Positions 2,508 through 62,710 of a stretch of DNA of 64,000 bases are shown here, one piece after another. A program made the translations under genes and the position numbers. The notes beneath the pieces were generated by a model. It had not been told where the DNA came from and searched no databases. It saw only the letters and a list, made by a program, of their open reading frames with translations. The stretch's first letter is position 1; each line of letters starts with the position of its first letter. Source of the stretch: Candidatus Margulisiibacteriota bacterium (lineage in GTDB: Bacteria; Margulisbacteria; Marinamargulisbacteria; JBFWNS01); the NCBI GenBank assembly GCA_050250935.1, contig JBFWNS010000003.1, forward strand, positions 160,001-224,000. Direction: 5' to 3'.

Positions 2508-4320
2508 CGTCGGAAACCTCCAGGGTGTGGGAATGATCGTCGTAAAGGGCTTCGATATCTGCTTGAAACTTTTCATAAATAATCTTTCTTTTGGGTTTTA
2601 AAGTCGGGGTTAATTCCCCGGTTTCTGGGCTTAATTCATGGGCTAAAATAACAAATTTTTTGATTTTTTCATAATTGGCATAGGGTTCCAGTTTTTTTTG
2701 AATCACGCGGTCCATAAACGCATAAACTGTAGATTCTTTGGAGAGCTGTTCTTCTGACGTTTCTTTGCTATATCCCATGGCCTTTCGAACACGGTTCCAT
2801 TGGGGCACCACCAAAGCGGTCAGAAAATTATGCCCTTCGCCAATAACCACCACTTGCGCAATGAACTTACTGGTACCCAGGGCTTTTTCGATGTTTTGAG
2901 GCGGAATTTTTTTGCCATTCGACAGCACAATGATTTCTTTTTTTCGGTCGATGATGCGGATGCTGCCATCCGAATCGATTTCGGCAATGTCGCCGGTATG
3001 TAAAAATCCCTTTTCGTCGATTACCTCGGCTGTTTTTTCGGGGAGATTCCAATAGCCCAGCATCACGTTTTCACCTTTGCAAATCAGCTCGCCTTCGTTA
3101 TTAAGGCCCACTTCTAGGCTTGGCAGGGCTTTTCCAACGGTGCCAAATTTGTAGTCGTCCAGGCGGTTGCAGGCGATGACGGGTCCGGACTCTGTCATGC
3201 CGTACCCTTCGATAATAATCAGACCCATGTTTTCAAAAAAGCGGCCTAGATCTCGGGCCAATGGGGCTCCTCCCGAGACAAAAAATCGAAGTCGGCCACC
3301 CACTTTTGCCTTTATTTTTCGAAAAACCAGCGCTTTGGCAATGGCGTTGTCGATGCGAAGACCGAGGGTGAGGGTGTTGCTCTTTTTTGCAGTCTGATAG
3401 CGTTGTCCGATTTTAAGGGCCCAGTAGAGAATTTTTTCTTTAAGGCCATGGGCTTCGTCCAAAATCTTGGCCTGAATTTTTTCGTATAATCGGGGAACGC
3501 TCACAACGATGGTTGGGCGAACCTCTTGAATATCAATTGAAACCGTATTGATCGATTCGGCATAATAAATTTTGCCGCCCACAGCCAAAATCACATAATA
3601 GCCGACGGTGCGTTCAAAAACGTGGGAAAGGGGCAAAAACGAGAGGGCAATATCGGTGCTGCTGACCGGGGTAATGGCCATGATGTCTTCAATGTTGCTT
3701 AAAAAATTGCCATGACTCAGCATGACCCCCTTGGGATTTCCAGTGGTTCCCGAGGTATAGACAATGCTGACCAGGGTATTTCGGTTAATTTGAGACTGAC
3801 GCTCCAAAACAACGGTCCAATGAGCTTGCTTTTCTTTGCGTCCTTTTTCTAAGGCTTCTTCAAAAGATAAATACATCACCCCATGGGCATCGGCCGCGTC
3901 AAAGGATACGATGTGACGCACCAAAGGACAGTGCTGTTGGGCCGTCATGAGTCTGCTTAAATGGTCGTGGGTTTCGCAAAAAACAGCAGAGGCGCCCGAG
4001 TCGGTTAAAATGTATTCGATTTCGGTGGTGGTTAAGGTGGGATAAATGGGAACCAGAACAGCCTGGATTTTTTGACAAGCAAAATCGCAAATGACCCATT
4101 CTGGCCGGTTTTGGCTTAACAGCGCAACACGGTCCCCAGGATTAATGCCAGCTGTGAGCAGCCAAACGGCTAGGGCATCGATTTGCTCGGCAACCTGGGC
4201 ATAGGTTAGCGCTTGATACTGGCCTTGTTTTTTGGCATACAAAAAGTCCCGATCTGCAGTCAGGTCTACATGCGCTTGAAGCAGGTTTAAGAGGGATGTG
4301 GTTTGCATGGGATTGGCCAC
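2497..4320 (-). CDS. fadD: Long-chain fatty acid--CoA ligase
   Basis: AMP-binding motifs YTSGTTGNPKG, EGYGMTE, TGD and RKK, plus C-terminal LTPTLKPKR. Confidence 0.93.
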   Translation of the reverse strand: MANPMQTTSLLNLLQAHVDLTADRDFLYAKKQGQYQALTYAQVAEQIDALAVWLLTAGINPGDRVALLSQNRPEWVICDFACQKIQAVLVPIYPTLTTTEIEYILTDSGASAVFCETHDHLSRLMTAQQHCPLVRHIVSFDAADAHGVMYLSFEEALEKGRKEKQAHWTVVLERQSQINRNTLVSIVYTSGTTGNPKGVMLSHGNFLSNIEDIMAITPVSSTDIALSFLPLSHVFERTVGYYVILAVGGKIYYAESINTVSIDIQEVRPTIVVSVPRLYEKIQAKILDEAHGLKEKILYWALKIGQRYQTAKKSNTLTLGLRIDNAIAKALVFRKIKAKVGGRLRFFVSGGAPLARDLGRFFENMGLIIIEGYGMTESGPVIACNRLDDYKFGTVGKALPSLEVGLNNEGELICKGENVMLGYWNLPEKTAEVIDEKGFLHTGDIAEIDSDGSIRIIDRKKEIIVLSNGKKIPPQNIEKALGTSKFIAQVVVIGEGHNFLTALVVPQWNRVRKAMGYSKETSEEQLSKESTVYAFMDRVIQKKLEPYANYEKIKKFVILAHELSPETGELTPTLKPKRKIIYEKFQADIEALYDDHSHTLEVSDDEN

Positions 4321-4384
4321 AGGATATCACTTTCCGATCTGTGGGGCTAGCATTGGTGGGGTCGAGGCGGTAGTATTCTAGGCT

Positions 4385-5014
4385 ATGCCAAAACAATCTG
4401 TGTGGACAAAATTTCTTGTGGGCTTTTTTGTTGTTTTTCTTGGTGCTGGGCTCTATGGTTTGATAGCGTCTCAAGAATGGTTTTGGGATTTGACGTCTTG
4501 GCAGACTTATACTTTAACCCCAGCTTCGAAATCTCTGCTTCACGCGATTGATTCCCCCATTCGAGTTGCAGGTTTTTTTGAACAAAATACAGTGGAAAAA
4601 GGCATGCTCCGTGGGCTTTTTTCAGCTTATCATGCGCAGAACAATCAGTTTTTGTATACCTTTATAGACCCTGTACGGGAGCCCAATCAGGCGTTGGCTT
4701 GGGGGGAATCTCGTCGGGGAGTTGTGATTATTCAGATTAAAGACCGCCGATTTCGACTGCCGCTGGAATCTTTTTTCCAAGTTTCTGTTGCCCAAGGAAT
4801 GCCTGTTTTTAAAGGCGAAGAGGTTCTTTCTGGGGCGATAGCCGAAGGGTTTTCTTTGCCAGCCCCTGTCATTGAAAAACCTTTGGGAACTTCAGTTCAG
4901 GTTATCTTAACCGAAATCCAACAGGCTTGGATATTTATCTTGTTGTGTCTTGTGTTTCCTTTTATAGTGGCGTTTAGGGCTTTTTGGGTCTATCTCAAAA
5001 AGCGAAAAGCTTGA
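4385..5014 (+). CDS. Short GldG-like (ABC-type uncharacterized transport auxiliary) membrane protein
   Basis: N-terminal TM, then WDLT...YTLTPASK.LL..I..PI.V..F and F.Y.FIDP..EP, then a C-terminal TM. Much shorter than typical GldG-family proteins. Confidence 0.6.
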   Translation: MPKQSVWTKFLVGFFVVFLGAGLYGLIASQEWFWDLTSWQTYTLTPASKSLLHAIDSPIRVAGFFEQNTVEKGMLRGLFSAYHAQNNQFLYTFIDPVREPNQALAWGESRRGVVIIQIKDRRFRLPLESFFQVSVAQGMPVFKGEEVLSGAIAEGFSLPAPVIEKPLGTSVQVILTEIQQAWIFILLCLVFPFIVAFRAFWVYLKKRKA

Positions 5015-5031
5015 TTTTATAAGGAAAAAAA

Positions 5032-5472
5032 ATGCTTAAACGAAGCAATGCCTTGTTTTGGTCAACGTTGGTTGTTTTGGGGGTTTCTGGTGTGTTGGTC
5101 ATGGGGTATTTTTATAAAACTGTTCGAGAAAGAAATGCACTTCCGGAAGCACCGCACAGTGCACTGACCGAAGCCAATTTTGCTGCATTTTTGAATAACC
5201 CTTCTGCTCAAAAAGAAACGGCTAGACTCTTTATTAACCAATGTGCGGCCTGCCATGGATCTTCGGGCAATGGCGGGGTAGGGGTTTCTTTTCGAGATGC
5301 TGAATGGAAATATGGGGGCAGCCTTTCTGAAATCGAGGCGAGCATCATCCAAGGCCGGATCGGAATGCCCCGGTTTGGCGGGCGGCTTCAACCGGTGGAT
5401 ATCGAACAGTTGGCCATGTATGTAAAATCGTTTTCAATCCCGCAAGAGCCCAAAAATGAATCGGTTAATTAA
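5032..5472 (+). CDS. Membrane-anchored monoheme c-type cytochrome (cbb3 subunit III-like domain)
   Basis: N-terminal TM, CAACH heme motif, G..G.GG.G..F.D..W.YGG and distal Met in GMPRFG. Confidence 0.88.
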
Positions 5473-7423
5473 CGAAAAAAGCCCCTATTTACGCCAGCAT
5501 GCCCAGCAAGCCATTCATTGGTATGCATGGGGCGATGAGGCCTTTCAAGTCGCCGAGGCCGAAAAAAAACCTGTGTTTATCTCGATTGGCTATTCGACCT
5601 GTCATTGGTGCCATGTGATGGCCCATGATTCTTTTGAAGACGAAGCTGTTGTGGCCTTCTTAAATGCCCATTTTGTGTCCATTAAAGTGGATCGGGAAGA
5701 ACATCCTGATGTCGATCAATTTTACATGACAGCCTGCCAATACATGACGGGTGCCGGCGGATGGCCTTTGACCCTTTTTGCCCTGCCCGATAAACGGCCT
5801 TTTTTTGCTGGGACTTTTTTCCCAAAGCAGTCCAGTTCGGGGCGCATTGGGTTTTTGGATTTAATGCACTATCTTTCTGACGCGTGGCAAAATTCCCATT
5901 CAGATATTTTGAGTACCGCCAACCAATTGATGATTTCGATGGCCCACGATTCGGTGTTGGGACAAAGTGATGCCCCAGATTCGCGCTTATTAACCACCGG
6001 GCTTTCGGCTTTTAAAGATCAGTTCGATGCCACTTATGGCGGATTCGGACCTGCCCCTAAATTTCCGTCGCCTCATCAACTGTTGTTTTTGCTTCAAACC
6101 CAAGATGCCGACTGCAAGGCTATGGCGGTTCATACCCTAAAAGCCATGCGCTATGGCGGTATTTTTGATCAGATTGGGTTTGGTTTTCACCGATATTCGA
6201 CCGATGCCCATTGGCTTTTGCCACATTTCGAAAAAATGCTCTACGACCAAGCCTTATTGCTTTTGGCCTATACCGAAGGGTTTTTACAAACCCAATCCCC
6301 TCTTTTTTCGCTTACGGTTGAACAAATTATCGATTATATCCGCCAAAAACTGTCAGCCCCAGAGGGTGGATTTTATTGCGGAGAAGATGCCGATAGCGAG
6401 GGCGAAGAAGGCAAATTTTATGTGTGGAATGCCGCCGATTTCCCCAAAGATTGGCAGGCCTTTTGGCAGATCGATCCTGCTGGAAATTTTGCGCACGAAG
6501 CCACTGGCCACCGGGACGGCACCTCTATTTTACATGTCGATTTGGGGTGTTCGGAATCTGATTTTGTGTCTCGATTAACCCAATTTGAGCCTGCTCGAAA
6601 GACTTTGTACGATCTGCGAGAGACCCGTATTCACCCTGGTTTGGATTCCAAAGTCCTTACCGATTGGAATGGACTAATGATTGCGGCTTTGGCCAAGGCG
6701 TCTCGGGTTTTTTCTAGACCGGATTGGTTGCAGATGGCCGAAAAAGCCTTGTCCTTTTTAGAATCGAACCTTTGTATAAAAAATCAGGTGTGCCATTCCT
6801 GGTGCGATGGGGTTTTGAATACAACCCAGACGGCTTCGGATCGAGTCTTTTTGGCCTGGGGATGTTTCGAGCTGTATCAAACAACCTTGGATTCTAGGTA
6901 TTTGAACAAAGCCGTGTTGTTAATGCAGGAGACTTGGGATTTATTTGGCGATGAAAAACGCGGTGGTTTGTACAGCAGTATCGCTGGTGCCATGCCCATC
7001 CGCCAAAAAGAGGGCTATGATGGTGCGATTCCCAGCGTCAATGCCGTTGCCTTTTTTCTGTGGGGTGCCTTGGGCCGTCTTTTGCATCGCCAAGACTGGA
7101 TCGTGCTAGCCGACCAGGCCAAGCAGGCTTTCGCAGATCGTATTGGCCACTATGCTTTGGGTCATGGGTTTTGGCTTTACGCGCTGACTCTGCAAGCCAA
7201 TACTTGGGATATTACCCTTTCTGGCAATCCAGATTCTGAGGATTTCCAGTTTTTGTTTGCTGCGCTTCGTTCTCAGACTTTCGTGTCCGGATTTTGGCAC
7301 CATGATCCTGACTCCCATGCTCAGCCTGTCTGTGTTACCATTTGCCGTGGCACGGTCTGTATGGCAGAGTGTAGCAGCCCAGACGCCTTAAAAGATTGGA
7401 TTTCGACCCATGCATCTTGTTGA
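5456..7423 (+). CDS. Thioredoxin-domain protein, YyaL/SSP411 (DUF255) family
   Basis: [56 protein letters not shown]. Confidence 0.93.
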
Positions 7424-50829: not shown

Positions 50830-51597
50830 ATGCGTAAGTTGGTTGTTGCTGGAAATTGGAAAATGGTAAAAACCTGTGCAGAAACCGAGGCTTTTGCGTC
50901 GGCTTTCTCTCAAAAAATCAATCGCTCTTTCTCTGTTGAAACCATTGTTTTTCCTCCTTTTACAAGTCTTTCTGCGGCTAGAAAAGCACTGCCCAACATG
51001 GTCAAGTTGGGTGGGCAAAACCTCTATCCGGCTATCGAAGGGGCTTTTACAGGCGAAATCTCGCCGGGCATGCTCGTCGAGCTGGGGTGTAGCCATGTAT
51101 TAATTGGGCATTCCGAACGGCGCCAGTACTTTCATGAAGACCCTGCTTTTTTAGCTCGCAAGCTAGAAGCGGCCTTTACTGCAGGTCTATGCCCTGTCCT
51201 GTGTATCGGAGAAACCCTAGAACAATACGAAGCGGGAACAACTCAGGCTGTGTTGGCGTCTCAATTGAAACAAAGCCTAGAACCCATCAAAGCGGCTTGT
51301 CTGGCCAACCCGTTTATTATTGCCTATGAACCCGTTTGGGCGATTGGTACGGGTAAAGTGGCCACGGCCGAGTATGCTCAAGAGGTTCATGCTTTTGTTC
51401 GCAAAGTTCTTGCCGATTGTTTGTCTTCGACCTTGGCTGAAACCATTCAGATTTTGTACGGCGGCTCTGTTAAACCCAATAATGCTGTAGAGCTTCTAAG
51501 CCAGCCCGATATTGACGGGGCGCTTATTGGTGGGGCCAGTTTGGATCCAGACTCGTTCTTCGATATTATTGTTGGTGCGCATGACCTTAAAAAATAA
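50830..51597 (+). CDS. tpiA: Triosephosphate isomerase
   Basis: AGNWKM, GHSERR, AYEPVWAIGTG, YGGSV and GGASL. Confidence 0.98.
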   Translation: MRKLVVAGNWKMVKTCAETEAFASAFSQKINRSFSVETIVFPPFTSLSAARKALPNMVKLGGQNLYPAIEGAFTGEISPGMLVELGCSHVLIGHSERRQYFHEDPAFLARKLEAAFTAGLCPVLCIGETLEQYEAGTTQAVLASQLKQSLEPIKAACLANPFIIAYEPVWAIGTGKVATAEYAQEVHAFVRKVLADCLSSTLAETIQILYGGSVKPNNAVELLSQPDIDGALIGGASLDPDSFFDIIVGAHDLKK

Positions 51598-52316: not shown

Positions 52317-53189
52317 CTATCTCTGGCTTTTTTGAAACGCCTCGACAGTGTTTTGCATCAGCATGGCAATGGTCATTTTGCCAACGCCGCCGGGGACTGG
52401 GGTGATGTCGCAGCAATGATTTACAACCGCGTCAAAATCCACGTCGCCGACTAGTTTATACCCTTTGGGTGAATTTGGATCTTCAATTCGGTTAATGCCA
52501 ACATCAATCACAACCGCGTTTGGGTTTACCATGTCGGCAGTAATGAATCGAGGCTTCCCAATGGCTGCCACCAAGATATCGGCTTGTTGGGTAATGCTGG
52601 CCAGATTTTGGGTCTGAGAATGGCAAATTGTTACGGTTGCGTTGGCTTGCAGCATCATGGCCATTTGGGGTTTTCCCACAATGTTGCTTCGCCCAACAAT
52701 CACCACATGTTTTCCTTTGGGGTCGATGTTATAAAACGAGAGTAGGGCCATTACCCCATAAGGTGTACAGGATTTTAGACAGGGTTCTCCCAATAGCAAG
52801 TTTCCAATATTAATGGGATGAAAGCCATCTACATCCTTTTCCGGTGCAATAAGACGCAATAAACGGCTTTCATTAAGCCCTTTTGGCAGGGGCAGTTGCA
52901 GCAAAATTCCGTGGACATCGTGCCTGGCATTCAGTTCTAAAATAAGGCTTTCGATGTCTGTTTCGGAGGCTGTTTTGGGCAACAAAAACTCGAATGAGGC
53001 GATCCCAATGGCTTCGCAGGCCCTTTTTTTGGCCCCAACATAGGTTTGGGAAGCGGGGTTATCGCCCACCAAAATAACAGCCAACCCTGGGCGTTTTCCT
53101 GTTGTTTGGACGCTGTTTTGAATGTCGGTTTTCAGGCTATCCAAAACATGGTTTGAAACCACAGACCCATCGAGCAATCGTGTAGGCAT
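52317..53189 (-). CDS. folD: Methylene-THF dehydrogenase/cyclohydrolase
   Basis: Y...K, QLPLP, KDVDGFHP, GRSNIVGKP and TPVPGGVG. Confidence 0.97.
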   Translation of the reverse strand: MPTRLLDGSVVSNHVLDSLKTDIQNSVQTTGKRPGLAVILVGDNPASQTYVGAKKRACEAIGIASFEFLLPKTASETDIESLILELNARHDVHGILLQLPLPKGLNESRLLRLIAPEKDVDGFHPINIGNLLLGEPCLKSCTPYGVMALLSFYNIDPKGKHVVIVGRSNIVGKPQMAMMLQANATVTICHSQTQNLASITQQADILVAAIGKPRFITADMVNPNAVVIDVGINRIEDPNSPKGYKLVGDVDFDAVVNHCCDITPVPGGVGKMTIAMLMQNTVEAFQKSQR

Positions 53190-53596
53190 TAGGATTCCTT
53201 GGTTAGCAAATGCCGATTGTCTTCGACACCCGTGGCAAATTTGTCGTAGCTGCCTTCTTTATAGCCTTGTTCTTGGCGCTTATGATTAAGGTCGTTCTTT
53301 TTGAAGTACAACTCGAAGACCTCTTGGGCGTTCATCCCAGAAATGGTGCACATGGACACCCAAAAATGTAACATGTCCACCAGCTCGATTTTGATGTTAT
53401 CCCAATCGTCTTCGCCTTTTTTCCACCATTTCCAACCGAGGCTATCAATGGCTTCTGCCGATTCCTGGCGCAGGGCCAATTCGAATTGCATGAACCATTT
53501 TTTACGAATTTCGGGGTCTTGAATGTCCGTGTAGAGGTCGGGATTAATACGTTTATTGAGTTCGATTTGTTTGTCAAAAACGGCTTGTAAGTCCAT
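53189..53596 (-). CDS. Dimeric all-alpha dUTPase-like NTP pyrophosphatase
   Basis: E..E....WKWWK, E.VD.LHF and K..LN..RQ..GY motifs; stop overlaps the folD start (TAATG). Confidence 0.85.
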   Translation of the reverse strand: MDLQAVFDKQIELNKRINPDLYTDIQDPEIRKKWFMQFELALRQESAEAIDSLGWKWWKKGEDDWDNIKIELVDMLHFWVSMCTISGMNAQEVFELYFKKNDLNHKRQEQGYKEGSYDKFATGVEDNRHLLTKES

Positions 53597-53741
53597 GGGA
53601 ATCTCCTTGGTTATCGCTGAGGTTTAAACCCAGTAGTATAGGTCATTTTTTTTCACTTTCACAACCCAAAAATCCGTGATAGGATTCGCCAACTTTTCCT
53701 GTAAAGTCAGCTATAAAATTTAAGTAAGGGAGTTTTCCGTT

Positions 53742-56087
53742 ATGCGTAAACTGATTGCCCTTCGTGCGCCGCTTGGGTTAACAACACCCATTGCATTAAG
53801 CCCTTTTTTGGATGGATTGGGAGGCGAATCTGCTTTCCAGGTTTCCCTTCAAGCTGGTGCCGCTTCGCAATCAGGTATCTCCATTTATCCGTTTCATCTT
53901 GGGGATGTAAAGGGTTTGGAAGTTCCTCAAGCTTTTCGTACTGCCATTGCGGAGGCTGCATTAAATGCGGCTATCACCTATACCCCAACTGCTGGTACGC
54001 TTGAACTTCGTCAGGAACTGGCTGCTTATTTGAGTAGCGTTTATGGGATCCCTCTCAAAGCAGACAATATTGCGGTCTCTCCGTCCAAAGAAACACTGGC
54101 TAAACTGTTTATGATGTTAATGGGGCCCGAAGCAAAATTTTCTTATCCGGTTCCTGGATACCCCATTTATGCCTCTTGGGCTTCGATGGCCGCATCTTTC
54201 TTTAATCAAGCCGATATGGCTCAGCCCTATACACTCAATCTAAATTCCGAGACACCGGGGATCGATATTGCTTCGCTTAGAAAAACACTTGAAGCGGGAG
54301 CAACTGTGGTGGTGATTAACGACGACCACAATCCCACAGGCTCTAGCATGACCCCCGAAGTTGCAGCCGAATTACAGGCCCTGTTTGCCGAATTTCCTCA
54401 GGTTTTTGTGATTTTTGATATCGCTTATAGCCAAAGTCGCTTCTCTGAAAAACCCAGCGCTGCTATGGGGCTCTTTCAGCAACTGTTTAGGGAAAATCGA
54501 GCGGCCTTTGACTGGACCTTCAGTAAGGTTGGGGCTGCAACTGGGGCTCGACTGGGGTGTGTTATCTTGCCGAACCGCGCTGTAAAAACAGATAATACCA
54601 GTATTAAAACCCTCATGGATGCCTTTAATAAACTCACTGGCAATTTAGAGTCCTGCCCACCCAGTCTTGAGCAAATTGGGCTTTTGGCTGCGTTGAAAGC
54701 GCGTGATAAATTTGATGAAACTGTGAAACGCAATAATGCTGTTTTAAAAGAACGCAGGGATGTCTTGATGGGTCATTTGGGAAATATCGAAGGGGTTAAG
54801 GCGGCAACACCAGATGCTGGGTTTTATGTCTTTGCCGATGTTACCCAATTGATTGCAGATCTGGGCTTTGGCAAAGATGTTGAAGCGTTCCGAAAAGCAG
54901 CTTTGGATGCCACAGGGGTTAGCTTTTGTACGGGCAACCATTTTGGCGAAACCGATAAATATTATCCCGATCAACGGTTTGTGCGGTTTGCGTTTTCGGG
55001 CATCACAAAAGAAGATATTGATACAGCCATGGTGAAATTTAAACAATGGATTGAAGACCGTAAGTTTGCACAAGTTCATTTTCAAGACAAAAAAGTGGCG
55101 GTTTTTGGGGCAGGGCCTGTGGGGCAACTGGCTGCACACCGGTTAAGCTTGGCTGGCGTTCAAACCACTCTGGTTACCCGCAACGCCTATGAAGCTGTTC
55201 AGGATCATGGGGTTCAAGTCACTTTACCCGTTCCAATGACGTCTAAGCCGGAGGTTGTTCGAACTGCAGGCGAATTAACGGGTCCTTTGGATGTCATTTT
55301 TATTGCCAACAAAGTTACCGATGATATCAGAGACCAGATTCGCCATTTGGTGGGGCCTCAAACCCAAATTGTTTGTTTGCAAAACGGCATTACGGCAGGA
55401 GATGCCTACCAGCAGGCTTTCCCTGACAATATCGTGGCCCAAGTTTCGATTTCGGTTCAAATTCGTCGCGATGGGGACGCGTTTACCATTCCCAAAGAAT
55501 TGGGCTGGAAAATGGGGCCAAAACGTCCCGATCAACAGGCCTCGGACTTGAAAGATTTGGCCCAGGCCCTTCGTGGTGTCGGGTTTAAAAACACCGAAGC
55601 GGTTGATCCCAAACCTATGCAAACCGCAGCCTGGGAAAAGCTGATTCGCAACTTGGCCAATTTTGCAGTATTGCAACTGGCCTTGGTTGGAAAAGGCCAA
55701 ACCTATGGGGATCTGTTGGCAGACGATGCCGCCCCAGTCCGGGCCCAAGTGCAAGTTGCTTTGGACGAATTATTAGGCATTGCTAGGTCTCGAGGTGTTG
55801 AGTTACCGAAATCCTCCAGCGACTACATGCGCGACATTTTAGCCTATGTTAAAACCGGCCACATCTGCACCACGTTGAATGCTTATGCCCAAGGCCTGGA
55901 AATTGAAGATTTATTGGCCGATGTGATCGGATTGGCTGGCAAGGAGTCAACATCTGCACTTGCGGAGCTCCAGGCACCTGTTTTGCAACACAATAAAGAA
56001 CCCAAGCAACACACCCTAAAAGAAGGGCTTCAAGATGCCAAGACATTGGAAGCGTTGTATCAAAAAGCACTTCTTGAGGTGCGGTGA
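53742..56087 (+). CDS. Fusion of PLP-dependent class I/II aminotransferase and ketopantoate-reductase-like (ApbA/PanE) dehydrogenase
   Basis: aa ~20-445: FHLGD, PGYPIY, HNPTG, DIAY, TFSK, G.RLG, VRFAFS. aa ~450-781: AVFGAGPVG, IFIANK, CLQNGI, WEKLIRN, EIE. One uninterrupted frame. Confidence 0.85.
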   Translation: MRKLIALRAPLGLTTPIALSPFLDGLGGESAFQVSLQAGAASQSGISIYPFHLGDVKGLEVPQAFRTAIAEAALNAAITYTPTAGTLELRQELAAYLSSVYGIPLKADNIAVSPSKETLAKLFMMLMGPEAKFSYPVPGYPIYASWASMAASFFNQADMAQPYTLNLNSETPGIDIASLRKTLEAGATVVVINDDHNPTGSSMTPEVAAELQALFAEFPQVFVIFDIAYSQSRFSEKPSAAMGLFQQLFRENRAAFDWTFSKVGAATGARLGCVILPNRAVKTDNTSIKTLMDAFNKLTGNLESCPPSLEQIGLLAALKARDKFDETVKRNNAVLKERRDVLMGHLGNIEGVKAATPDAGFYVFADVTQLIADLGFGKDVEAFRKAALDATGVSFCTGNHFGETDKYYPDQRFVRFAFSGITKEDIDTAMVKFKQWIEDRKFAQVHFQDKKVAVFGAGPVGQLAAHRLSLAGVQTTLVTRNAYEAVQDHGVQVTLPVPMTSKPEVVRTAGELTGPLDVIFIANKVTDDIRDQIRHLVGPQTQIVCLQNGITAGDAYQQAFPDNIVAQVSISVQIRRDGDAFTIPKELGWKMGPKRPDQQASDLKDLAQALRGVGFKNTEAVDPKPMQTAAWEKLIRNLANFAVLQLALVGKGQTYGDLLADDAAPVRAQVQVALDELLGIARSRGVELPKSSSDYMRDILAYVKTGHICTTLNAYAQGLEIEDLLADVIGLAGKESTSALAELQAPVLQHNKEPKQHTLKEGLQDAKTLEALYQKALLEVR

Positions 56088-57118
56088 TTTTTAAGCGGAT
56101 GAGTGTTGATTTTCGGTCTGCGGACTTTCCATGGTTTTCGACTTGGCAGCAGCTGTTGCCAGGTCTTAAGCAGGAAAATCTTATTTCTGTTGCTAAAGTG
56201 CTAGCCCCGGACATTGCTACCTGGGCTAGGGCAGAACAAATTCTGCCGCTTTCCGAAGAAACATTGGTTACCATCTATATTCCGTTGGCTTTTTGGGTTC
56301 AAGCACAAGCTTCTATGTGTCAACGCCCCGTTATTATTGGACTTAATGGGGCACAAGGGTCAGGAAAATCAACCCTTTCTGGTCTTTTGAAATTGATTTT
56401 AGAACGAGGACTTCAAACCCCAACCGCCGTTTTGTCTTTGGATGATTTGTACAAATCCCATGCCGATCGACAGCAGATGGCGGTAAAAACTCATCCCTTG
56501 TTTGCAAACCGAGGGGTTCCGGGAACCCACGATACGGCTTTGGGGTGCCAGGCTTTTACCCAGCTTAAGGCCAGGCAAGACGCGGTTTTCCCCCGTTTTG
56601 ATAAAAAAGCGGCACAAGGCTCTGGGGATCGATTGCCAGAAGCGCAGTGGACTCGTGTGCCAAAGGACACACAAGTGGTGTTGTTCGAAGGCTGGTTTGT
56701 GGGGGCGGCCCCTTTAATGGAGTCAGATTTGATGGCATCGCCAAACCGCCGAGAAACCCTTGAAGACCCGCAAGGGATTTGGCGACAGCACTGGAACCAA
56801 GCACTTGCAACGGACTATCAAACCCTCTTTGGTTTTTTAGATCGATTAATTGTTTTACAAATTCCTGGCATGAAAACAGTCTATCGCCAACGCGAAGAAC
56901 AAGAAGCCAAGTTGCGTTTAAGTGTTTCTGGGAGCTCGGATTCCACAGCCGGAGCCATGACCCCAGCGCAGGTTGAAAATTTTATTGCGCTGTTTGAACG
57001 GCTTACCCAATATCAGCTCTCCACGTTGCCTTTAACTGCAGACCTGCTTTTTCGCGTGGATGACCAACATCAGATTACCCATTTGCAGCCAAAAGGTGTT
57101 AAACTTTCCAGACTATGA
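56084..57118 (+). CDS. D-glycerate 3-kinase-like P-loop kinase (GLYK/Tda10 type)
   Basis: IIGLNGAQGSGKST, LSLDDLY, RGVPGTHD, PRFDK...GDR, LFEGWFVG and R.EQE..L; GTGA overlap with the upstream stop. Confidence 0.82.
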   Translation: MIFKRMSVDFRSADFPWFSTWQQLLPGLKQENLISVAKVLAPDIATWARAEQILPLSEETLVTIYIPLAFWVQAQASMCQRPVIIGLNGAQGSGKSTLSGLLKLILERGLQTPTAVLSLDDLYKSHADRQQMAVKTHPLFANRGVPGTHDTALGCQAFTQLKARQDAVFPRFDKKAAQGSGDRLPEAQWTRVPKDTQVVLFEGWFVGAAPLMESDLMASPNRRETLEDPQGIWRQHWNQALATDYQTLFGFLDRLIVLQIPGMKTVYRQREEQEAKLRLSVSGSSDSTAGAMTPAQVENFIALFERLTQYQLSTLPLTADLLFRVDDQHQITHLQPKGVKLSRL

Positions 57119-58464
57119 GCCAAGCCAATCAAATTTTAGAAGCACTTTCTGCCATTATTGATCCCGATTTAAACCAAGATATTGTCAGTCTTGGATTCGT
57201 TCAAAACCTGCTGATTTCGGACGAAGGGAATGTTTCTTTTACCCTGGAACTCACCACGCCGGCCTGCCCGGTCAAAGACCTTTTTGTGAAAGAGGCTACG
57301 GACCGGGTTAAGGCCTTGGGATGGCCCCAAGACGTTCGGGTAAGTTTAAGTGCTCAAAAACGCAATGTCCTTCGCCAACAAGGTAAGGGACTTGAAGGGG
57401 TGCAACGTATTATTGCAGTTCACAGCTGCAAGGGTGGGGTGGGCAAGTCTACGGTTGCGGTTAATTTGGCCTATAGCTTAGCTGCTCTGGGCGCTTCTGT
57501 TGGGTTGTTTGATGCCGACGTTTACGGCCCCAGTTTGCCCACCATGGTCAAGCTGGATTCCATGGAGCTGTTCATGAAAGGTGGGTTGATTGCCCCCTTG
57601 CTTAAACAGGGTGTCAAACTGATGTCTTTTGGCTATACCCAAGCCACCTCGGGCGAAACTGGCCCTGCAATTTTGCGTGGTCCTATTGTGTCTCAGATTA
57701 TCAACCAGCTACTCACCGGAACCGCTTGGGGCGACTTGGACTATCTGGTTTTGGACATGCCTCCTGGCACAGGAGACATTGCCATTACTGTTTCGCAGTT
57801 GGTGCCCATTACGGCGGCTGTGGTGGTTACCACCCCCCAAGAATTAAGTTTTGTGGATGTTATCAAAGGGATTCAGATGTTTGATTCCTTAAAAATTCCA
57901 GTGGTCACCGTGGTGGAAAACATGAGTTATTTTGAATGCGGGAATTGCCAAGAAAAACACCGTATTTATGGCCAAGGTGCTGCCAAAAAATTGGTTAACG
58001 AATTTGGCTTTGAACATGTCATCGAACTCCCTATTGACCCCAAAGTCGCCTCTGCTGGGGACAATGGGCTTCCTTTGGTAAAACAAACAGAATCCTCTTC
58101 GTCTCACCGTGCGTTTGAACATTTGGCCGAAACTGTTGTCCGAGAAGTGAGTCGTTTGGATGCTTTGGGCGCCATTCATCCCACCATTTCCTTTGATGAG
58201 GGCCTTGGTTTGGTTGCCCTTTATTCTTCGGGACAAACCCTTGCAATTCCAGCTGTGGAAGCCCGCTATTTGTGTCGATGTGCCCATTGCCAAGACGAAT
58301 TTACAGGTCAGCAGAAGCTGGATAAAGTCGCCATTGATCCCGACATTAGGGTGACAGCCCTTCAACCCATTGGTAATTATGCGGTGGGCTTAACCTGGAG
58401 CGATGGCCATTCCTCTATTTTTCCCTATGCGTTTTTCAAGGCTTTTCACGAAACCCTCATTTGA
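57115..58464 (+). CDS. HCF101-type Fe-S cluster carrier NTPase (DUF59 + Mrp/ApbC + DUF971)
   Basis: DPDL..DIV.LGFV, LTTPACP, SCKGGVGKS, DMPPGTGD, ENMS.F.C..C, CRCAHC and GNYAV...WSDGH; ATGA overlap with the kinase. Confidence 0.9.
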   Translation: MSQANQILEALSAIIDPDLNQDIVSLGFVQNLLISDEGNVSFTLELTTPACPVKDLFVKEATDRVKALGWPQDVRVSLSAQKRNVLRQQGKGLEGVQRIIAVHSCKGGVGKSTVAVNLAYSLAALGASVGLFDADVYGPSLPTMVKLDSMELFMKGGLIAPLLKQGVKLMSFGYTQATSGETGPAILRGPIVSQIINQLLTGTAWGDLDYLVLDMPPGTGDIAITVSQLVPITAAVVVTTPQELSFVDVIKGIQMFDSLKIPVVTVVENMSYFECGNCQEKHRIYGQGAAKKLVNEFGFEHVIELPIDPKVASAGDNGLPLVKQTESSSSHRAFEHLAETVVREVSRLDALGAIHPTISFDEGLGLVALYSSGQTLAIPAVEARYLCRCAHCQDEFTGQQKLDKVAIDPDIRVTALQPIGNYAVGLTWSDGHSSIFPYAFFKAFHETLI

Positions 58465-58505: not shown

Positions 58506-59258
58506 ATGTCAGTAGGCGGCGTTGGTCCAACGCCTTTAAGAGCCCCTCAACCCAATCCCCCCAAAACGCCCGAACCGGCCCGTAGTTTTGCGCCGCTAGA
58601 AACCAAAAAACCTGCCCCCGCACCTTCGCCGACCTACACACCGATTACGGTTAAAACCCTGGGCGGTCATAGCAGCGATTTGTATCAACCCAAGTTTACG
58701 GATGGGGGAGAGAGCTCTGCGGAATCCAAACAATCGGCACAAGACCGCAAGGACTATACCCAACAATTAACGGTTCAAGCCTTCAAAGATCGGGTTATCG
58801 AATACCAAGAAAAAATGACCATTCTTAGCGAGGTTCGAAAGCACCACCAGGAACGCGAAGCGCAGATGGCCACGAAATCTACACCCGTGCTCAGCGAAGA
58901 GTCCACCCCCGCCTCTCAACCCAAACCAACGGCCTTCGTTTCTGCCGAAACCCTTACCGAAAAACGCCTCAAAACCTTGGAAGAAAGCATTTCTGGACTC
59001 CAAAAAGAAAGTCGCTTAAAAGAAGTCTTAAACAAACTGCTTCGAAATCCTTTTGAATTTGACATCGAAGCGTCGTTTTTATCAAAATCCAAAACAAAGT
59101 CGTCCCATGCAAAACTTCAGAAAAAAAGGAATCAGATTCAAGCCGACGAAAGCCTGTTTTTTAGCTGGTTAACCCCAACCCAATTTACCTGGGCTCTGAT
59201 TATTTTGGCCTTTTTAATCGGCTTTGTTTTTGCAGTTTTCTACGTTAAATCGGCTTAG
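58506..59258 (+). CDS. Hypothetical protein with Pro-rich N-terminus, coiled coil and C-terminal TM anchor
   Basis: 250-aa ORF with a single hydrophobic helix at the extreme C-terminus. Confidence 0.75.
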   Translation: MSVGGVGPTPLRAPQPNPPKTPEPARSFAPLETKKPAPAPSPTYTPITVKTLGGHSSDLYQPKFTDGGESSAESKQSAQDRKDYTQQLTVQAFKDRVIEYQEKMTILSEVRKHHQEREAQMATKSTPVLSEESTPASQPKPTAFVSAETLTEKRLKTLEESISGLQKESRLKEVLNKLLRNPFEFDIEASFLSKSKTKSSHAKLQKKRNQIQADESLFFSWLTPTQFTWALIILAFLIGFVFAVFYVKSA

Positions 59259-60346
59259 TCACCCAAACAAATTCCGAGTCGTTTTGCGGTATCAATGAGG
59301 GGATGATCCAAGGGAATCAGCCGATCTGAAGACGCTGCGACTTGAAGCGGCACCATGTCCAAACCAGCGCCTTTTAAGGCCACCATTTTTCCGTATTCTT
59401 GGTTTAGAACAGCCTCGAAGGCCCGAATGCCAAATTGGGTTGCTAAAATGCGATCATAAGCGCAGGGAATGCCACCACGCTGGGTATGACCAAGGACTGT
59501 CACCCGGGCATCCACATCCATTTTTTGGGTTAACTCGGCCATAAACTGATACCCAACCCCTCCCAACATCGCATTTTGATACCCAGCTTCGGTGCTGGCA
59601 TGCTGCACGGTTTTACCATGAAGGGGTTTGGCACCTTCGGCAATGACAATGTTGGCGAATCCCAATTTCCGATGGAAGCGGTTATTCAACTTTTCGATGA
59701 CAGAGTCAATGCGATAGGGAATTTCTGGAATGATGGCCACATCAGCCCCCGCTGCAATGGCGGCATGAAGACAAATCCACCCCGCATCGCGGCCCATAAC
59801 TTCGGCAATCATGACCCGGTTGTGGCTTTCGGCTGTGGACACCAATTTGTCGACGGCTTCTGTGGCAATTTGAACGGCGGTTTCAAATCCAAACGACACG
59901 TCGGTTCCGGCCAAATCGTTGTCGATGGTTTTGGGTACCCCAATAATATGGAGTCCCTTTTCAAACAGTTTTTGCGAGATTTGCTGAGAGCCATTGCCCC
60001 CGATGTTGATCACAGCCTCAACATTAAGCCTCTTTAAGGTTTCGATCAGCTCGTCAGATCGATCGATCAAAGTAGTGCTGCCATCAGCCTGAGGGGTTGG
60101 AAAGCTGAAGGGGTTTCCTTTGTTGGTGGTTTCCAGAATGGTTCCGCCTTTAACATGAATCCCCGACACGGCGGCTTTGTCCAAAACCACCACCTGCTGG
60201 GGGTCTTGCAACAGGCCATTGAAGGCCCGTTTGCTGCCCAACACTTCCCACCCACCTTCGTTTAAGGCAGCACGAACGATGGCCCGAATAACGGCATTCA
60301 ACCCAGGACAATCGCCCCCACCCGTTAAAATTAAGATTCGTTTCAT
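59255..60346 (-). CDS. pfkA: 6-phosphofructokinase, probably ATP-dependent
   Basis: TGGGDCPGLNA, GGNGS, PKTIDND, EVMGR and LGHTQRGG. Confidence 0.93.
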   Translation of the reverse strand: MKRILILTGGGDCPGLNAVIRAIVRAALNEGGWEVLGSKRAFNGLLQDPQQVVVLDKAAVSGIHVKGGTILETTNKGNPFSFPTPQADGSTTLIDRSDELIETLKRLNVEAVINIGGNGSQQISQKLFEKGLHIIGVPKTIDNDLAGTDVSFGFETAVQIATEAVDKLVSTAESHNRVMIAEVMGRDAGWICLHAAIAAGADVAIIPEIPYRIDSVIEKLNNRFHRKLGFANIVIAEGAKPLHGKTVQHASTEAGYQNAMLGGVGYQFMAELTQKMDVDARVTVLGHTQRGGIPCAYDRILATQFGIRAFEAVLNQEYGKMVALKGAGLDMVPLQVAASSDRLIPLDHPLIDTAKRLGICLGD

Positions 60347-60355
60347 GGGGTCTCC

Positions 60356-62710
60356 TTATCGGTTAATCACCGCTATTTTGAATTTTTTTAGAATGGCTTG
60401 TCCATTTCCTTCGGCTTTTAAAACACAGATATAAACCCCATTGGGTACAAATGCGCCTGCATCATCTTTGCCATCCCAAGGTTCTGCACGGTATCCAACC
60501 CCTGACCATTGCCATTTTCGAATCAGATTGGCGTTCAAATCGTAGAGCAAAAAGGTCACCACAGCGTCCTGGTTCACTTGAAATTCAATCACGGTATTTT
60601 CTTTTTGGGGATTGAACGGGTTGGGGGTGTTAATGATGGGGCTGGTCGTGCCTTGGGGGCCAAAAATGGTAAATGCCGTTGCTGCCAAGGGAGCATTTTT
60701 AAGGCTGAGGCTGCTGCTCTGGCCCCAATTTCCAGAAGTATCCGCAATGCCAACTTGAATTTGTACAGACGTTTGATCCGACACATTCAAACTGACACTG
60801 GCAAAATCGATGTTCAAGGTGGGGGCAGAATAGGAGATCCCTGTAGAACTTGCGTTCAGTACAAGGGTGGTTAACCCGGCATTCAGGGTTACAACCAGCG
60901 TTGCTGGGTTAACCGCAATGTTGTCTGTAACTTTGACCGACAACACTTTTTTAGACGACAGATAGTCGTTGTCCAACACCGACGGAAAGGTAATGGAAGG
61001 TGGCGTCTTATCCAACAAGGTAACAGAAATCAAATTGCTGGTTGGCGTTCCTGTGGGATAACTCACAAAATTTTCAGTATGAAGATCATCCAGTGTGACA
61101 TAAAAATCGAATCGTCCTTCGGTATCTGGCGGTGTGAAGGTTGTGGTATAGGTATTGGTGTTGGAGATTTTAGACAATTGCTGCACCTTCCAATCTCCGG
61201 CCGAACCCGTTGTGGGTACCAGTCGTGTATTCAAAAATACTTTGGGAAGTGCACTGATCGGCGAATTATCTGTTGCCGTCACCTGAAGTACCCATGCTGC
61301 ATTCATGGTTGCCGTTTCCGAATAGGTAATGGCGTTTAAAGTAGGGGGCGTCGTGTCATTTAAATAGTAGTAAAGCAACATATCCTGAAGGTTCAATAAA
61401 CCATATCCATAATAGGGGTCTTTACCCAAGGTTCCTTTATCGGTGGCTGTTTGGGTAATAGCGGTGTAGACCTCGCTTGGGTTTAAGACAGGGTATTTTG
61501 AAAGCAACAACGCTGCAGCCCCAGCCACATGTGGCGAGGCCATGGATGTTCCAGTATCTGCTGCATAGCTACTTTCTGTATAAGTAGACGCAATGTCTGT
61601 TCCTGGAGCCGCAATATCCACACGATTGCCATAGTTGCTGTAGGATGAATCAAAGGTACCCGATTTGGTCGTTGCCGAAACGGCGATTACGCCGGAATAA
61701 CCAGCGGGATAGATCGGAAAAGTGTTTAAATTCCTTGCATCATTACCAGCAGCCGCAACAACCACAACCCCATTGCTGGTGGCATAGCCCACCGCTGCTT
61801 GAAACAACATATCTCCACTGGTTGTATTTGAATAACCGCCCAAGCTCATGTTGATAATTTGGGCGCCTTTGTCTACGGCATAATGCACGGCATTGACAAG
61901 AGGAACGTCATCAAAGCCATCTTTTGTGCCTGCACAAAGGGGCATAATGGTGGCTCCGCCAGCGACACCCGCAATCCCTTTTCCATTGTTAATGGTAGCG
62001 GCAACAATGCCTGCGACATGGGTTCCGTGACCGTGTGTTGGGCTAGGGTCGTTGGTGTTGTAAACAAAATTCCATCCATGAATATCATCAATCAGGTTAT
62101 TTCCGTCGTCATCAGACCCATCTAGGGTTTCGTCGGGATTGGTCCAAATGCGGTCCACCAGATCGGGGTGATTTAGCTGTACGCCGGTATCGATAATGGC
62201 AACCACGATGTTGGGACTGCCAATGGTTATGTCCCAAGCCTCGTTGGCTTTAATGGTTGGCATATTGGATTGGTAGGTTGCGTAGTAGGTGTCGTCAGGA
62301 ACCAGGGTAGGGTAGTACACAAAATTGGGCTGGGCCCATTCAACCCAGGCTTCTTGTTTAAGCTGATGAACGGTTTCGAGAACATCCGAAGAGGTGGTCA
62401 GCTGAAGGTGATAGATGCCATCCAGCGCATCGGTGGCCTGTTGTTGAATTCCTTTTCTTTGAAGGCGCCTAGACAATTTGGCTTTAACAAAATGGACTTC
62501 TTTAAACGATTTGAACCCTTTTATTTTTTTGAATTCATTGGGTGTGGGCACAGATTCTGAAGTTGATAGGGCATTTTTTATGCTTGCAGGCGCATAATTG
62601 GCTTTGTATTTGACCAGAATTTCTCCGGGCCTATAGGTGTCTTTGGCCATAGTGATGCTGCCACAACAGAGTCCCATTAACAAACAAAATCCCCAAGTCC
62701 TTAAGTTCAT
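60356..62710 (-). CDS. Secreted S8 subtilase with Ig-like domains and C-terminal FlgD-like domain
   Basis: Signal peptide; triad IIDTG / HGTHVAG / GTSMASP; AAAGN; C-terminal NTPNPFNP...WDGKD..G..VPNGVY. Confidence 0.92.
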   Translation of the reverse strand: MNLRTWGFCLLMGLCCGSITMAKDTYRPGEILVKYKANYAPASIKNALSTSESVPTPNEFKKIKGFKSFKEVHFVKAKLSRRLQRKGIQQQATDALDGIYHLQLTTSSDVLETVHQLKQEAWVEWAQPNFVYYPTLVPDDTYYATYQSNMPTIKANEAWDITIGSPNIVVAIIDTGVQLNHPDLVDRIWTNPDETLDGSDDDGNNLIDDIHGWNFVYNTNDPSPTHGHGTHVAGIVAATINNGKGIAGVAGGATIMPLCAGTKDGFDDVPLVNAVHYAVDKGAQIINMSLGGYSNTTSGDMLFQAAVGYATSNGVVVVAAAGNDARNLNTFPIYPAGYSGVIAVSATTKSGTFDSSYSNYGNRVDIAAPGTDIASTYTESSYAADTGTSMASPHVAGAAALLLSKYPVLNPSEVYTAITQTATDKGTLGKDPYYGYGLLNLQDMLLYYYLNDTTPPTLNAITYSETATMNAAWVLQVTATDNSPISALPKVFLNTRLVPTTGSAGDWKVQQLSKISNTNTYTTTFTPPDTEGRFDFYVTLDDLHTENFVSYPTGTPTSNLISVTLLDKTPPSITFPSVLDNDYLSSKKVLSVKVTDNIAVNPATLVVTLNAGLTTLVLNASSTGISYSAPTLNIDFASVSLNVSDQTSVQIQVGIADTSGNWGQSSSLSLKNAPLAATAFTIFGPQGTTSPIINTPNPFNPQKENTVIEFQVNQDAVVTFLLYDLNANLIRKWQWSGVGYRAEPWDGKDDAGAFVPNGVYICVLKAEGNGQAILKKFKIAVINR

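Follow-up and report, generated by a model that had tools for sequence, protein, structure and literature searches.

What does a protein that joins an aminotransferase (AT) to a ketopantoate reductase (KPR)-like domain do when its gene runs straight into that of a plant-type glycerate kinase? This question is raised by a locus of Candidatus Margulisiibacteriota bacterium (GCA_050250935.1, hereafter G000), located in a stretch of 64,000 nucleotides at positions 160001-224000 of contig C3 (JBFWNS010000003.1); this whole stretch is called the window. The assembly comprises 1.95 Mb in 17 contigs and is 95.85% complete, and its closest relatives among the compared genomes share only its class. A first-pass annotation of the window had proposed that the two genes rebuild the route from serine to 3-phosphoglycerate (3-PGA) from enzymes of unusual folds. 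Judging from sequence comparisons, we rate the chances that the fusion and the kinase convert L-serine via hydroxypyruvate and D-glycerate to 3-PGA as about even. The elements concerned are the following.

53742..56087, + strand: AT-reductase fusion, open reading frame (ORF) of 781 aa with an ATG start (ORF list)
53742..55076, + strand: AT module of the fusion (residues 1-445), class I fold (Pfam, alignment, AlphaFold2 model)
55077..56087, + strand: PanE/ApbA-like (KPR-fold) module of the fusion (residues 446-781 plus stop) (Pfam, motifs, structure match)
56084..57118, + strand: homologue of GLYK-type (class III) P-loop glycerate kinases, 344 aa, GTG start (similarity to solved D-glycerate 3-kinases)

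The junction at 56080-56089 reads tgcGGTGAtt, and the GTG start of the kinase (56084-56086) overlaps the TGA stop of the fusion (56085-56087) as GTGA, as the first-pass annotation had noted. An alternative in-frame kinase start, an ATG at 56099, lies 11 nt past the fusion stop; whichever start is used, the two genes are tightly coupled. A terminator-like 6-bp hairpin at the junction (56067-56082, followed by GGTGATTTTT to 56091, + strand) is not significant, with 6 such sites found regionally versus 9.4 expected.

The fusion is real, intact, and rare. A word-indexed search of 5.8 billion proteins, in which the 8000 candidates sharing most words were scored (length, 429-1367 residues), returned three other fusions, 38 to 41% identical. 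An exhaustive HMMER search of 1.84 billion cluster representatives gave 3833 proteins at E <= 0.001, and 10 among the 150 matches listed were fusions of an AT with an ApbA domain (P0001, P0004, P0005, P0007-P0011, P0014, and P0031; the Pfam scan covered 15 of these 150). In a set with each GTDB species represented by a single genome, G019, G009 (SI072_bin107), and G041 (nzgw233) were the only genomes besides G000 to yield the fusion-type reductase domain: the whole fusion as a query against genome contigs gave 3 loci from 54 stretches, and the reductase domain gave the same three genomes among 155 relatives. Against metagenome contigs, the whole fusion matched nearly exclusively stand-alone ATs, plus a 2.3-kb fusion fragment (L149) and G019's own contig. 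Our literature search found the route discussed with canonical enzymes; neither an AT-reductase fusion nor a comparable class I serine AT turned up in it, although we do not claim their absence from print beyond this search.

The N-terminal module is covered by Pfam PF00155 (Aminotran_1_2) at residues 61-430 (113.1 bits; cut-off, 19.7), and Aminotran_5 (PF00266) has no match on the fusion; the fold is that of class I, so the domain is not a canonical class V SGAT. The Schiff-base lysine K262 lies within FSKVGAATGARLG (pattern FSKxGxxTGxRLG). K262, N197, D226, Y229, and R415, which we take to be the pyridoxal 5'-phosphate (PLP)-binding lysine and its Asn/Asp/Tyr/Arg set, are invariant across 11 fusions and align with the same motifs in solved ATs. 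K116, also invariant in the fusions, aligns with K169 of the Arabidopsis prephenate AT, the lysine mutated in entry 5wmk and presumably the one binding the distal carboxylate. This position suggests a dicarboxylic partner as co-substrate, either glutamate/2-oxoglutarate or aspartate/oxaloacetate. An AlphaFold2 model of the fusion (mean pLDDT 87, pTM 0.84), in which a long helix (423-446) joins the two domains, matched class Ib ATs in Foldseek with TM scores of 0.86 to 0.89 (normalised to the target). These matches (prephenate, aspartate, alanine, and alanine:glyoxylate ATs) are generic and carry no clue to the substrate.

The C-terminal module matches Pfam ApbA at residues 452-579 (76.8 bits; cut-off, 22.2) and contains a readable GAGPVG dinucleotide motif. 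In the ESM Atlas, residues 445-765 match KPR-named clusters only (TM 0.76 to 0.80), and PDB entry 8iwg is a sequence match (E 3e-7). By profile and structure, the module thus has the KPR fold, in which an N-terminal Rossmann domain is followed by a helical C-terminal one. The match to PF02826 (2-Hacid_dh) is Rossmann-level (24.5 bits, below the cut-off of 25.1), and PF00389 is unmatched. Residues G456/G458, N548, K633, N637, and E722 are invariant across the 11 fusions; the last four presumably correspond to N98, K176, N180, and E256 of E. coli KPR. As judged by profile scores, the domain is nevertheless not an ordinary PanE, because TIGR00745, which covers residues 451-733, scores 90.5 bits and fails its curated cut-off of 141.35, a threshold that the stand-alone PanEs of G019, G009, and G005 clear (221.7, 196, and 179.4 bits, respectively). 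The PanE model NF005091 also fails (86.4 bits; cut-off, 252), and the reductase domains of the G019 and G009 fusions reach only 36 and 44 bits with TIGR00745. In addition, the ApbA_C model has no match in the fusion protein, the domain carries a C-terminal helical extension of about 60 residues, and positions 705-711 of the fusions bear a family-specific T-x-H-I/V-C/S-T-T motif, at what we take to be the site of the substrate-binding serine and asparagine of canonical PanEs. KPR-fold enzymes with other substrates exist: PaKPR2 accepts pyruvate, glyoxylate, and further 2-oxo acids for reduction but leaves ketopantoate unreduced (bioRxiv 10.1101/2024.01.05.573888).

The solved structures most similar to the kinase are all D-glycerate 3-kinases (6ckg, E 9.7e-20; the GLYK 7xpc, 2.6e-17; yeast YGR205w, 1odf, 1.5e-16), with low identity over matched stretches of about 140 to 175 residues, and weaker matches follow with 3c8u (5e-4), uridine kinase (0.05-0.08), and pantothenate kinase (0.14). 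None of the curated GLYK models in Pfam or NCBIfam matched, and PRK scores 19.2 bits (cut-off, 22). The kinase shares the motifs GAQGSGKST, SLDDLY, RGVPGTHD, FDK, GDR, and FEGW with GLYKs and, by these sequence criteria, belongs to the GLYK family. A pantothenate kinase was ruled out, since CoaX is present in 5/5 genomes tested and the similarity to PanK is at E 0.14. Class III glycerate kinases are described in the review PMC10970406 from plants, some cyanobacteria, yeast, and some algae, with D-glycerate as the sole substrate. Pfam, NCBIfam, and similarity to solved structures thus bear out the anatomy first read from the sequence, a class I AT, a PanE fold, and a GLYK-type kinase.

Bacterial relatives of the kinase tell what such genes accompany. 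An estimated 860 or so stretches hold GLYK-type genes; 571 of the 600 scanned encode a relative, and the best 80 loci were examined, with neighbours typed by tblastn with representative neighbours and named by NCBIfam. The family is widespread in metagenome-assembled genomes (MAGs) of Pseudomonadota. A 2-Hacid_dh resembling glyoxylate reductase (GR) or hydroxypyruvate reductase (HPR) accompanies the kinase in 12/80 of these best loci, mostly directly upstream of it, and in three of the 80 there is also a BhcA/SGAT-like class V AT (L067 and L083, in the order AT-dehydrogenase-GLYK, and L029, with the AT downstream). The L083 genes are closely packed (AT 2724-3914, dehydrogenase 3921-4892, GLYK 4893-5861), L067 has the same order, and the AT-reductase-kinase order of the window matches it. 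Other neighbours among the best 80 loci are MPGP-family phosphatases (16), glucosyl-3-phosphoglycerate-synthase-like genes (15), sucrose-phosphorylase-like GH13 genes (15), and GlcD-like oxidases (5). Judged by gene context, this suggests that the GLYK-type kinase family acts on glycerate.

Two side observations concern the same loci. The class V AT-dehydrogenase-GLYK operons are followed by a gene (L083:5875-6759 and L067:3603-4466, 54% identical to each other) whose LSPRDYHR and GST motifs resemble those of phosphatidylserine decarboxylase, a tentative name that does not come from a family call. Moreover, a true PanE gene (235 bits with TIGR00745 in L078) lies 0.7 to 1.8 kb upstream of the 2-Hacid_dh-GLYK pair in 5/80 best GLYK loci (L070, L071, L078, L080, and L090), mostly from Erythrobacteraceae/Sphingomonadales.

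Within G000, the usual sources of glycerate were not found. Its only 2-Hacid_dh is SerA-like, and tblastn of the genome with an SGAT-like AT, an HPR-like dehydrogenase, a GpgS-like protein, the phosphatase, and GH13 gave, with a threshold of E <= 1e-3, only a weak SerA match. MPGP-family phosphatases were found in 0/5 genomes (G000, G019, G041, G002, and G009), and class I (PF02595) and class II (PF05161) glycerate kinases in 0/5 each (G000, G019, G009, G002, and G005). Because the canonical AT, reductase, and glucosylglycerate genes were not found in G000, the kinase has no evident supplier of glycerate except the fusion upstream. A role of the kinase in glucosylglycerate turnover is unsupported, as G000 gave no MPGP-family phosphatase, GpgS-like, or GH13 match. 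The genome does carry SHMT, FolD, and an Aminotran_5 match of GcvP size.

We then considered whether the fusion and the kinase occur together, as the first-pass annotation had suggested checking for AT, PanE-like, and GLYK genes in other genomes. GLYK is present in 3/3 genomes with a close (at least 38% identical) fusion, G000, G019, and G041. Among 41 genomes of the class, the gene turned up in G000, G019, and G002, and G017 gave a 38-residue match confined to the P-loop; of the class relatives lacking the fusion, only about 1/37 carry it. G027, of the same family as G019, has neither gene. The genes are not adjacent elsewhere. In both G019 and G041, the fusion and GLYK lie on different contigs: the G019 fusion (L003) lies between a UbiA-family gene, itself preceded by CtaA and an unknown gene, and the genes for AhpC and SOD, while its GLYK (L018), 50% identical to the window kinase, follows another UbiA-family gene; the G041 fusion contig is 6.1 kb long and ends 170 bp past the gene, and its GLYK follows guaA elsewhere. 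The linkage whose lack of conservation was to speak against the proposal is therefore seen in one form and not in the other, as adjacency is confined to the window while co-occurrence holds in every close-fusion genome. The co-occurrence is an indication, not a test, since kin genomes are non-independent.

Beyond its own clade, the fusion best matches stand-alone ATs some 400 aa long (E 1e-50 to 1e-39) and two proteins, P0022 and P0028, in which a 35 to 36% identical AT is fused to a 2-Hacid_dh. The latter domain fits glyoxylate reductase best (400 and 310 bits, short of the cut-off of 455), followed by GhrB. We examined the neighbourhoods of 80 AT relatives in metagenomes (L105-L184) and 80 in GTDB genomes (L270-L349), with these counts near the AT.

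GR/HPR-like 2-Hacid_dh, same strand: metagenome 25/80, GTDB 24/80 (13 with the AT first, 11 with the dehydrogenase first)
GcvT-SHMT fusion (883 aa): metagenome 17/80, GTDB 7/80
Transketolase-like protein (785 aa): metagenome 9/80, GTDB 2/80
NADP-glutamate dehydrogenase: metagenome 8/80, GTDB 15/80
Dynamin-like protein: metagenome 16/80, GTDB 15/80

Except for the dehydrogenase, the metagenome counts come from ORF clustering, which gave the dehydrogenase in 23 loci; an ORF lies upstream of the AT in only 62 metagenome loci and downstream in only 61. In 33/77 metagenome loci with an AT ORF, the dehydrogenase, the GcvT-SHMT fusion, or the transketolase-like protein was present, alone or in combination. 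A tree of 123 ATs (14 AT parts of fusions, 11 stand-alone library matches, 68 metagenome ATs, and 30 random generic matches; 9/77 metagenome ATs were dropped for a length outside 380-440 aa) groups the AT domains fused to PanE as one clade (SH-aLRT 93), apart from the clade of the context-linked ATs (SH-aLRT 96). A branch with an SH-aLRT of 100 parts 29/30 generic ATs from the AT-PanE, AT-2-Hacid_dh, and context-linked ATs. These nongeneric ATs have in common the motifs HLGD (EIGEPDF in generic ATs), NDxxNPTG, NxESC, and GVSFCxxxHFG.

Several ATs deserve mention in their own right. HLGD-type ATs form a conserved module with the GR/HPR-like 2-Hacid_dh, GcvT-SHMT, transketolase-like, and NADP-glutamate dehydrogenase genes (for example, L171, L158, L163:4822-7473, and L142:2797-5154), and the AT/dehydrogenase/GcvT-SHMT module may be an undescribed, widespread unit of serine and one-carbon (C1) metabolism, as far as gene content tells. 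G019 also has a stand-alone 428-aa AT (P0012; L002:7968-9254, contig C1) that nests within the AT-PanE clade on a long branch, and its gene converges on a 422-aa gene that weakly matches nicotianamine synthase (NAS). The Chthonomonadales AT loci, with a PglF/WlaL-like dehydratase upstream and an unmatched 656-aa protein downstream, were judged a different sub-branch. Finally, in P0139 (1203 aa), a class I AT of the generic clade is joined to a transketolase N-terminal domain; this protein is distinct from the ATs that merely neighbour transketolase-like genes.

Taken together, the comparisons point to the following route. The AT domain would deaminate L-serine to hydroxypyruvate with a dicarboxylic partner such as 2-oxoglutarate, and the fused KPR-fold domain would then use NAD(P)H to turn this 2-oxo acid into a D-(R)-2-hydroxy acid, D-glycerate. 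KPR produces (R)-pantoate, an (R)-2-hydroxy acid whose configuration matches that of D-glycerate. The fusion would keep the reactive hydroxypyruvate near the reductase, and phosphorylation of D-glycerate by the GLYK-type kinase would yield 3-PGA. Carbon from serine and C1 units (the genome has SHMT, glycine cleavage, and FolD) could thereby enter glycolysis or gluconeogenesis. In function, this would equal the lower half of the serine cycle or of the photorespiratory route, but a class I AT would stand in for the class V AT and a KPR fold for the 2-Hacid_dh. Since two unrelated reductase folds attach to one AT subfamily, the AT and the reductase would act consecutively, on an amino acid, its 2-oxo acid, and the D-2-hydroxy acid. 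Serine, hydroxypyruvate, and D-glycerate appear the best candidates because of the GR/HPR-like alternative partner, the SHMT-containing neighbours, the coupled GLYK, the co-occurrence, and the missing canonical enzymes. The idea that the three-step chemistry was rebuilt from other folds has thus gained comparative support from the canonical operon order, the gaps in the genome, the co-occurrence, and the swap of reductase partner, whereas conserved adjacency did not hold up.

A wider claim can be made only tentatively, and we think it possible but not probable: HLGD-motif class I ATs would be unrecognised hydroxypyruvate-forming serine ATs of many uncultivated bacteria, always with a D-2-hydroxyacid reductase recruited at least twice (2-Hacid_dh and KPR), and in Margulisbacteria, the sister lineage of Cyanobacteria, fused and coupled to a plant-type glycerate kinase as a non-canonical route of serine/C1 assimilation that would run in parallel to the serine cycle and photorespiration.

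A number of observations weigh against the serine-to-3-PGA route. Adjacency of fusion and kinase is seen in only 1/4 fusion-bearing genomes, and G009 (91% complete), whose distant fusion has 997 aa, gave no GLYK with either a protein or a profile query. Near the AT relatives, GLYK was found in 0/80 metagenome loci and 0/80 GTDB AT/2-Hacid_dh loci. The sequence does not single out serine as the AT substrate, and functional transfer from the AT relatives rests on about 35% identity. Moreover, the tree sets the AT-PanE clade apart from the clade with dehydrogenase/GcvT-SHMT context, the backbone between them not being resolved, and distant AT members stand in unrelated contexts. The NADP-glutamate dehydrogenase beside AT relatives suggests an aminating, serine-forming direction, and only 4/12 genomes with an AT/2-Hacid_dh pair have SerC above the NF003764 cut-off. 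All KPR catalytic residues are kept in G000, a genome with no stand-alone PanE. Lastly, a third gene (Mrp) is coupled to the pair, so the operon is not purely a pathway unit.

Alternatively, the same AT-reductase logic might serve another amino acid (alanine, aspartate, branched-chain, or aromatic), with the kinase being a neighbour by operon convenience like Mrp. We consider this unlikely, although the adjacency in one of four fusion genomes is in line with it, the best solved relatives of the AT are prephenate, aspartate, and alanine ATs, K116 occupies a dicarboxylate-binding lysine position, and distant members occur in unrelated contexts such as beside the PglF/WlaL-like dehydratase of Chthonomonadales. 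The known KPR-fold keto-acid reductases also accept many 2-oxo acids. However, another substrate would leave unexplained why the otherwise rare GLYK is present in all three close-fusion genomes, and where its glycerate comes from in a genome with no SGAT, HPR, or glucosylglycerate genes. In addition, Pfam and NCBIfam scans of the window found no NRPS, depsipeptide, or hydroxy-acid-consuming genes near the fusion.

It is improbable, in our view, that the enzymes run in the serine-forming direction, either from glycerate via hydroxypyruvate to serine or kinase first, from glycerate via 3-PGA and 3-phosphohydroxypyruvate to phosphoserine, with the fusion as a non-canonical SerA/SerC. AT relatives do stand beside 2-Hacid_dh genes resembling 3-phosphoglycerate dehydrogenase (PGDH) or GR (175-246 bits with TIGR01327), SHMT-containing fusions, and NADP-glutamate dehydrogenase, and a SerA/SerC-like role of the AT/2-Hacid_dh pair is possible because SerC scores above the cut-off in only 4/12 pair genomes. 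Those four genomes do, however, carry canonical SerC, and a different type of SerC may serve the actinobacterial members of the 12. G000 itself encodes both a canonical SerC (538 bits; cut-off, 253) and a SerA-like PGDH, which rules out the fusion as its sole SerA/SerC. Furthermore, glycolysis supplies 3-PGA in abundance, and with the kinase acting first there would be no reason to expect fusion and GLYK to co-occur.

That the C-terminal domain is the real ketopantoate reductase of G000, the fused AT and the kinase being unrelated to pantothenate synthesis, seems highly improbable. G000 has PanB, PanC, and CoaX and no stand-alone PanE, the window domain scores higher with TIGR00745 (90.5 bits) than those of G019 (36) and G009 (44), and all KPR catalytic positions are kept. 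Yet the score remains below the curated cut-off, and G019 and G009 keep a true PanE beside their own fusion. A PanE above the cut-off is missing in 16/41 class genomes, six of which are at least 90% complete, and IlvC, which supplies ketopantoate reductase activity in E. coli, is present in G000.

The PLP pathway of the class is of some interest in itself: PdxJ was found in 18/21 genomes (G000 and 20 class relatives) and PdxS in 1/21, and only one 2-Hacid_dh is present in 4/5 genomes checked (all but G002), so that the PdxB step has no obvious gene in the class. It is scarcely credible that the trio makes 4-phosphohydroxy-L-threonine for PdxA/PdxJ, with the kinase acting on erythronate, the KPR fold replacing PdxB, and the AT replacing SerC: reliance on PdxJ and the lack of a second 2-Hacid_dh that could serve as PdxB would fit, but PdxJ is near-universal in the class while the fusion occurs in 3/41 genomes, which makes it no general PdxB substitute, and there is no linkage to pdx genes.

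The wider surroundings include the following features.

50830-51597: tpiA (Pfam/NCBIfam)
52317-53189, - strand: folD, divergent from the fusion (FolD NF010783, 381.7 bits; cut-off, 333)
53189-53596, - strand: dUTPase_2/MazG-like gene, divergent from the fusion (Pfam, NCBIfam)
53658..53685, + strand: candidate promoter-like site in the divergent intergenic region 5' of the fusion, TTCACA-16 nt-TAGGAT with TG, 9/12 consensus matches
57115..58464, + strand: Mrp/ApbC-type Fe-S cluster carrier with a C-terminal GBBH-like_N domain (Pfam, NCBIfam)
59255-60346, - strand: pfkA (Pfam/NCBIfam)

As first annotated, folD is divergent and tpiA and pfkA lie within a few kb, but these are housekeeping genes that add little support to the pathway. 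Genes for a cyclophilin and an H+-PPase are also within a few kb of the fusion. A gap of 145 bp separates the fusion from the divergent dUTPase_2-like/folD pair, which we take as context only. The promoter-like match is weak and rests on consensus only, with 9 such sites found in the region versus 6.0 expected. The ATG of the Mrp gene, which the first-pass annotation had not mentioned, overlaps the kinase stop as ATGA; Mrp is co-transcribed with the kinase, as judged by this overlap, and we infer no pathway role for it. Among sequencing runs, the stretch was matched only by DNA runs of a single study, one of them perhaps its source. The carrier combines ParA/NUBPL, FeS_assembly_P, and GBBH-like_N (DUF971-type) domains, and its coupling to the metabolic pair has no evident reason. 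Further downstream are a 250-aa ORF with no family match (58506-59258, + strand) and a 784-aa subtilase (60356-62710, - strand), whose best NCBIfam match is a type VII secretion mycosin (206.7 bits, below the cut-off).

Compared with known systems, the chemistry and the superfamilies are not new; what is new is the enzyme set, the combination of folds, and the fusion. The route from serine to 3-PGA has been discussed as an option for serine assimilation in Desulfovibrio desulfuricans (PMC7547702). The serine-cycle/photorespiratory trio of class V AT, 2-Hacid_dh HPR, and glycerate kinase (as in the Gammaproteobacteria/Methylothermaceae MAGs with L083 and L067) has the same predicted chemistry, gene order, and kinase family, whereas the window combines an AT of class I with a reductase of the KPR (6-phosphogluconate-dehydrogenase-like) fold and joins the two in a single chain. 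The reductase domain resembles PanE/ApbA and KPR-fold reductases such as P. aeruginosa KPR2 (PDB 8IWG/8IX9) in its fold, its GxGxxG motif, and its Asn/Lys/Asn/Glu positions, and differs from PanE in failing TIGR00745, in its own T-x-H-I/V-C/S-T-T motif, in the AT fusion and the helical extension, and in that ApbA_C was not detected. The kinase is like class III GLYKs of Arabidopsis, Nostoc/Anabaena, and yeast (YGR205w) in P-loop fold family and motifs; unlike these, this putative glycerate kinase, of low identity to them, is encoded by a non-photosynthetic Margulisbacteria MAG. The AT/GR-HPR-like pairs and fusions (P0022 and P0028; L105-L184 and L270-L349), for which we found no characterised member, represent a sister AT subfamily with common motifs and the same logic of an AT plus a D-2-hydroxyacid reductase; however, their reductase is of an unrelated fold, GLYK is nearby in 0/160 loci, and their neighbours are GcvT-SHMT, transketolase-like, and NADP-glutamate dehydrogenase genes.

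If the proposed route is correct, the conversion of serine via hydroxypyruvate and D-glycerate to 3-PGA could be built from a class I AT and a KPR-fold enzyme, and annotation pipelines would miss it by labelling the protein "aminotransferase/2-dehydropantoate 2-reductase." A function would be assigned to a rare fusion family (at least 10 cluster representatives among 1.84 billion) and, beyond it, to a much larger uncharacterised group of ATs from sediment and groundwater bacteria that are paired with GR/HPR-like dehydrogenases and GcvT-SHMT fusions. Synthetic C1 assimilation could likewise profit from an AT-reductase whose fused domains channel hydroxypyruvate. Finally, a plant-type glycerate kinase, together with a source of its substrate, would be present in a non-photosynthetic sister lineage of Cyanobacteria, which would bear on the origin of photorespiratory enzymes.

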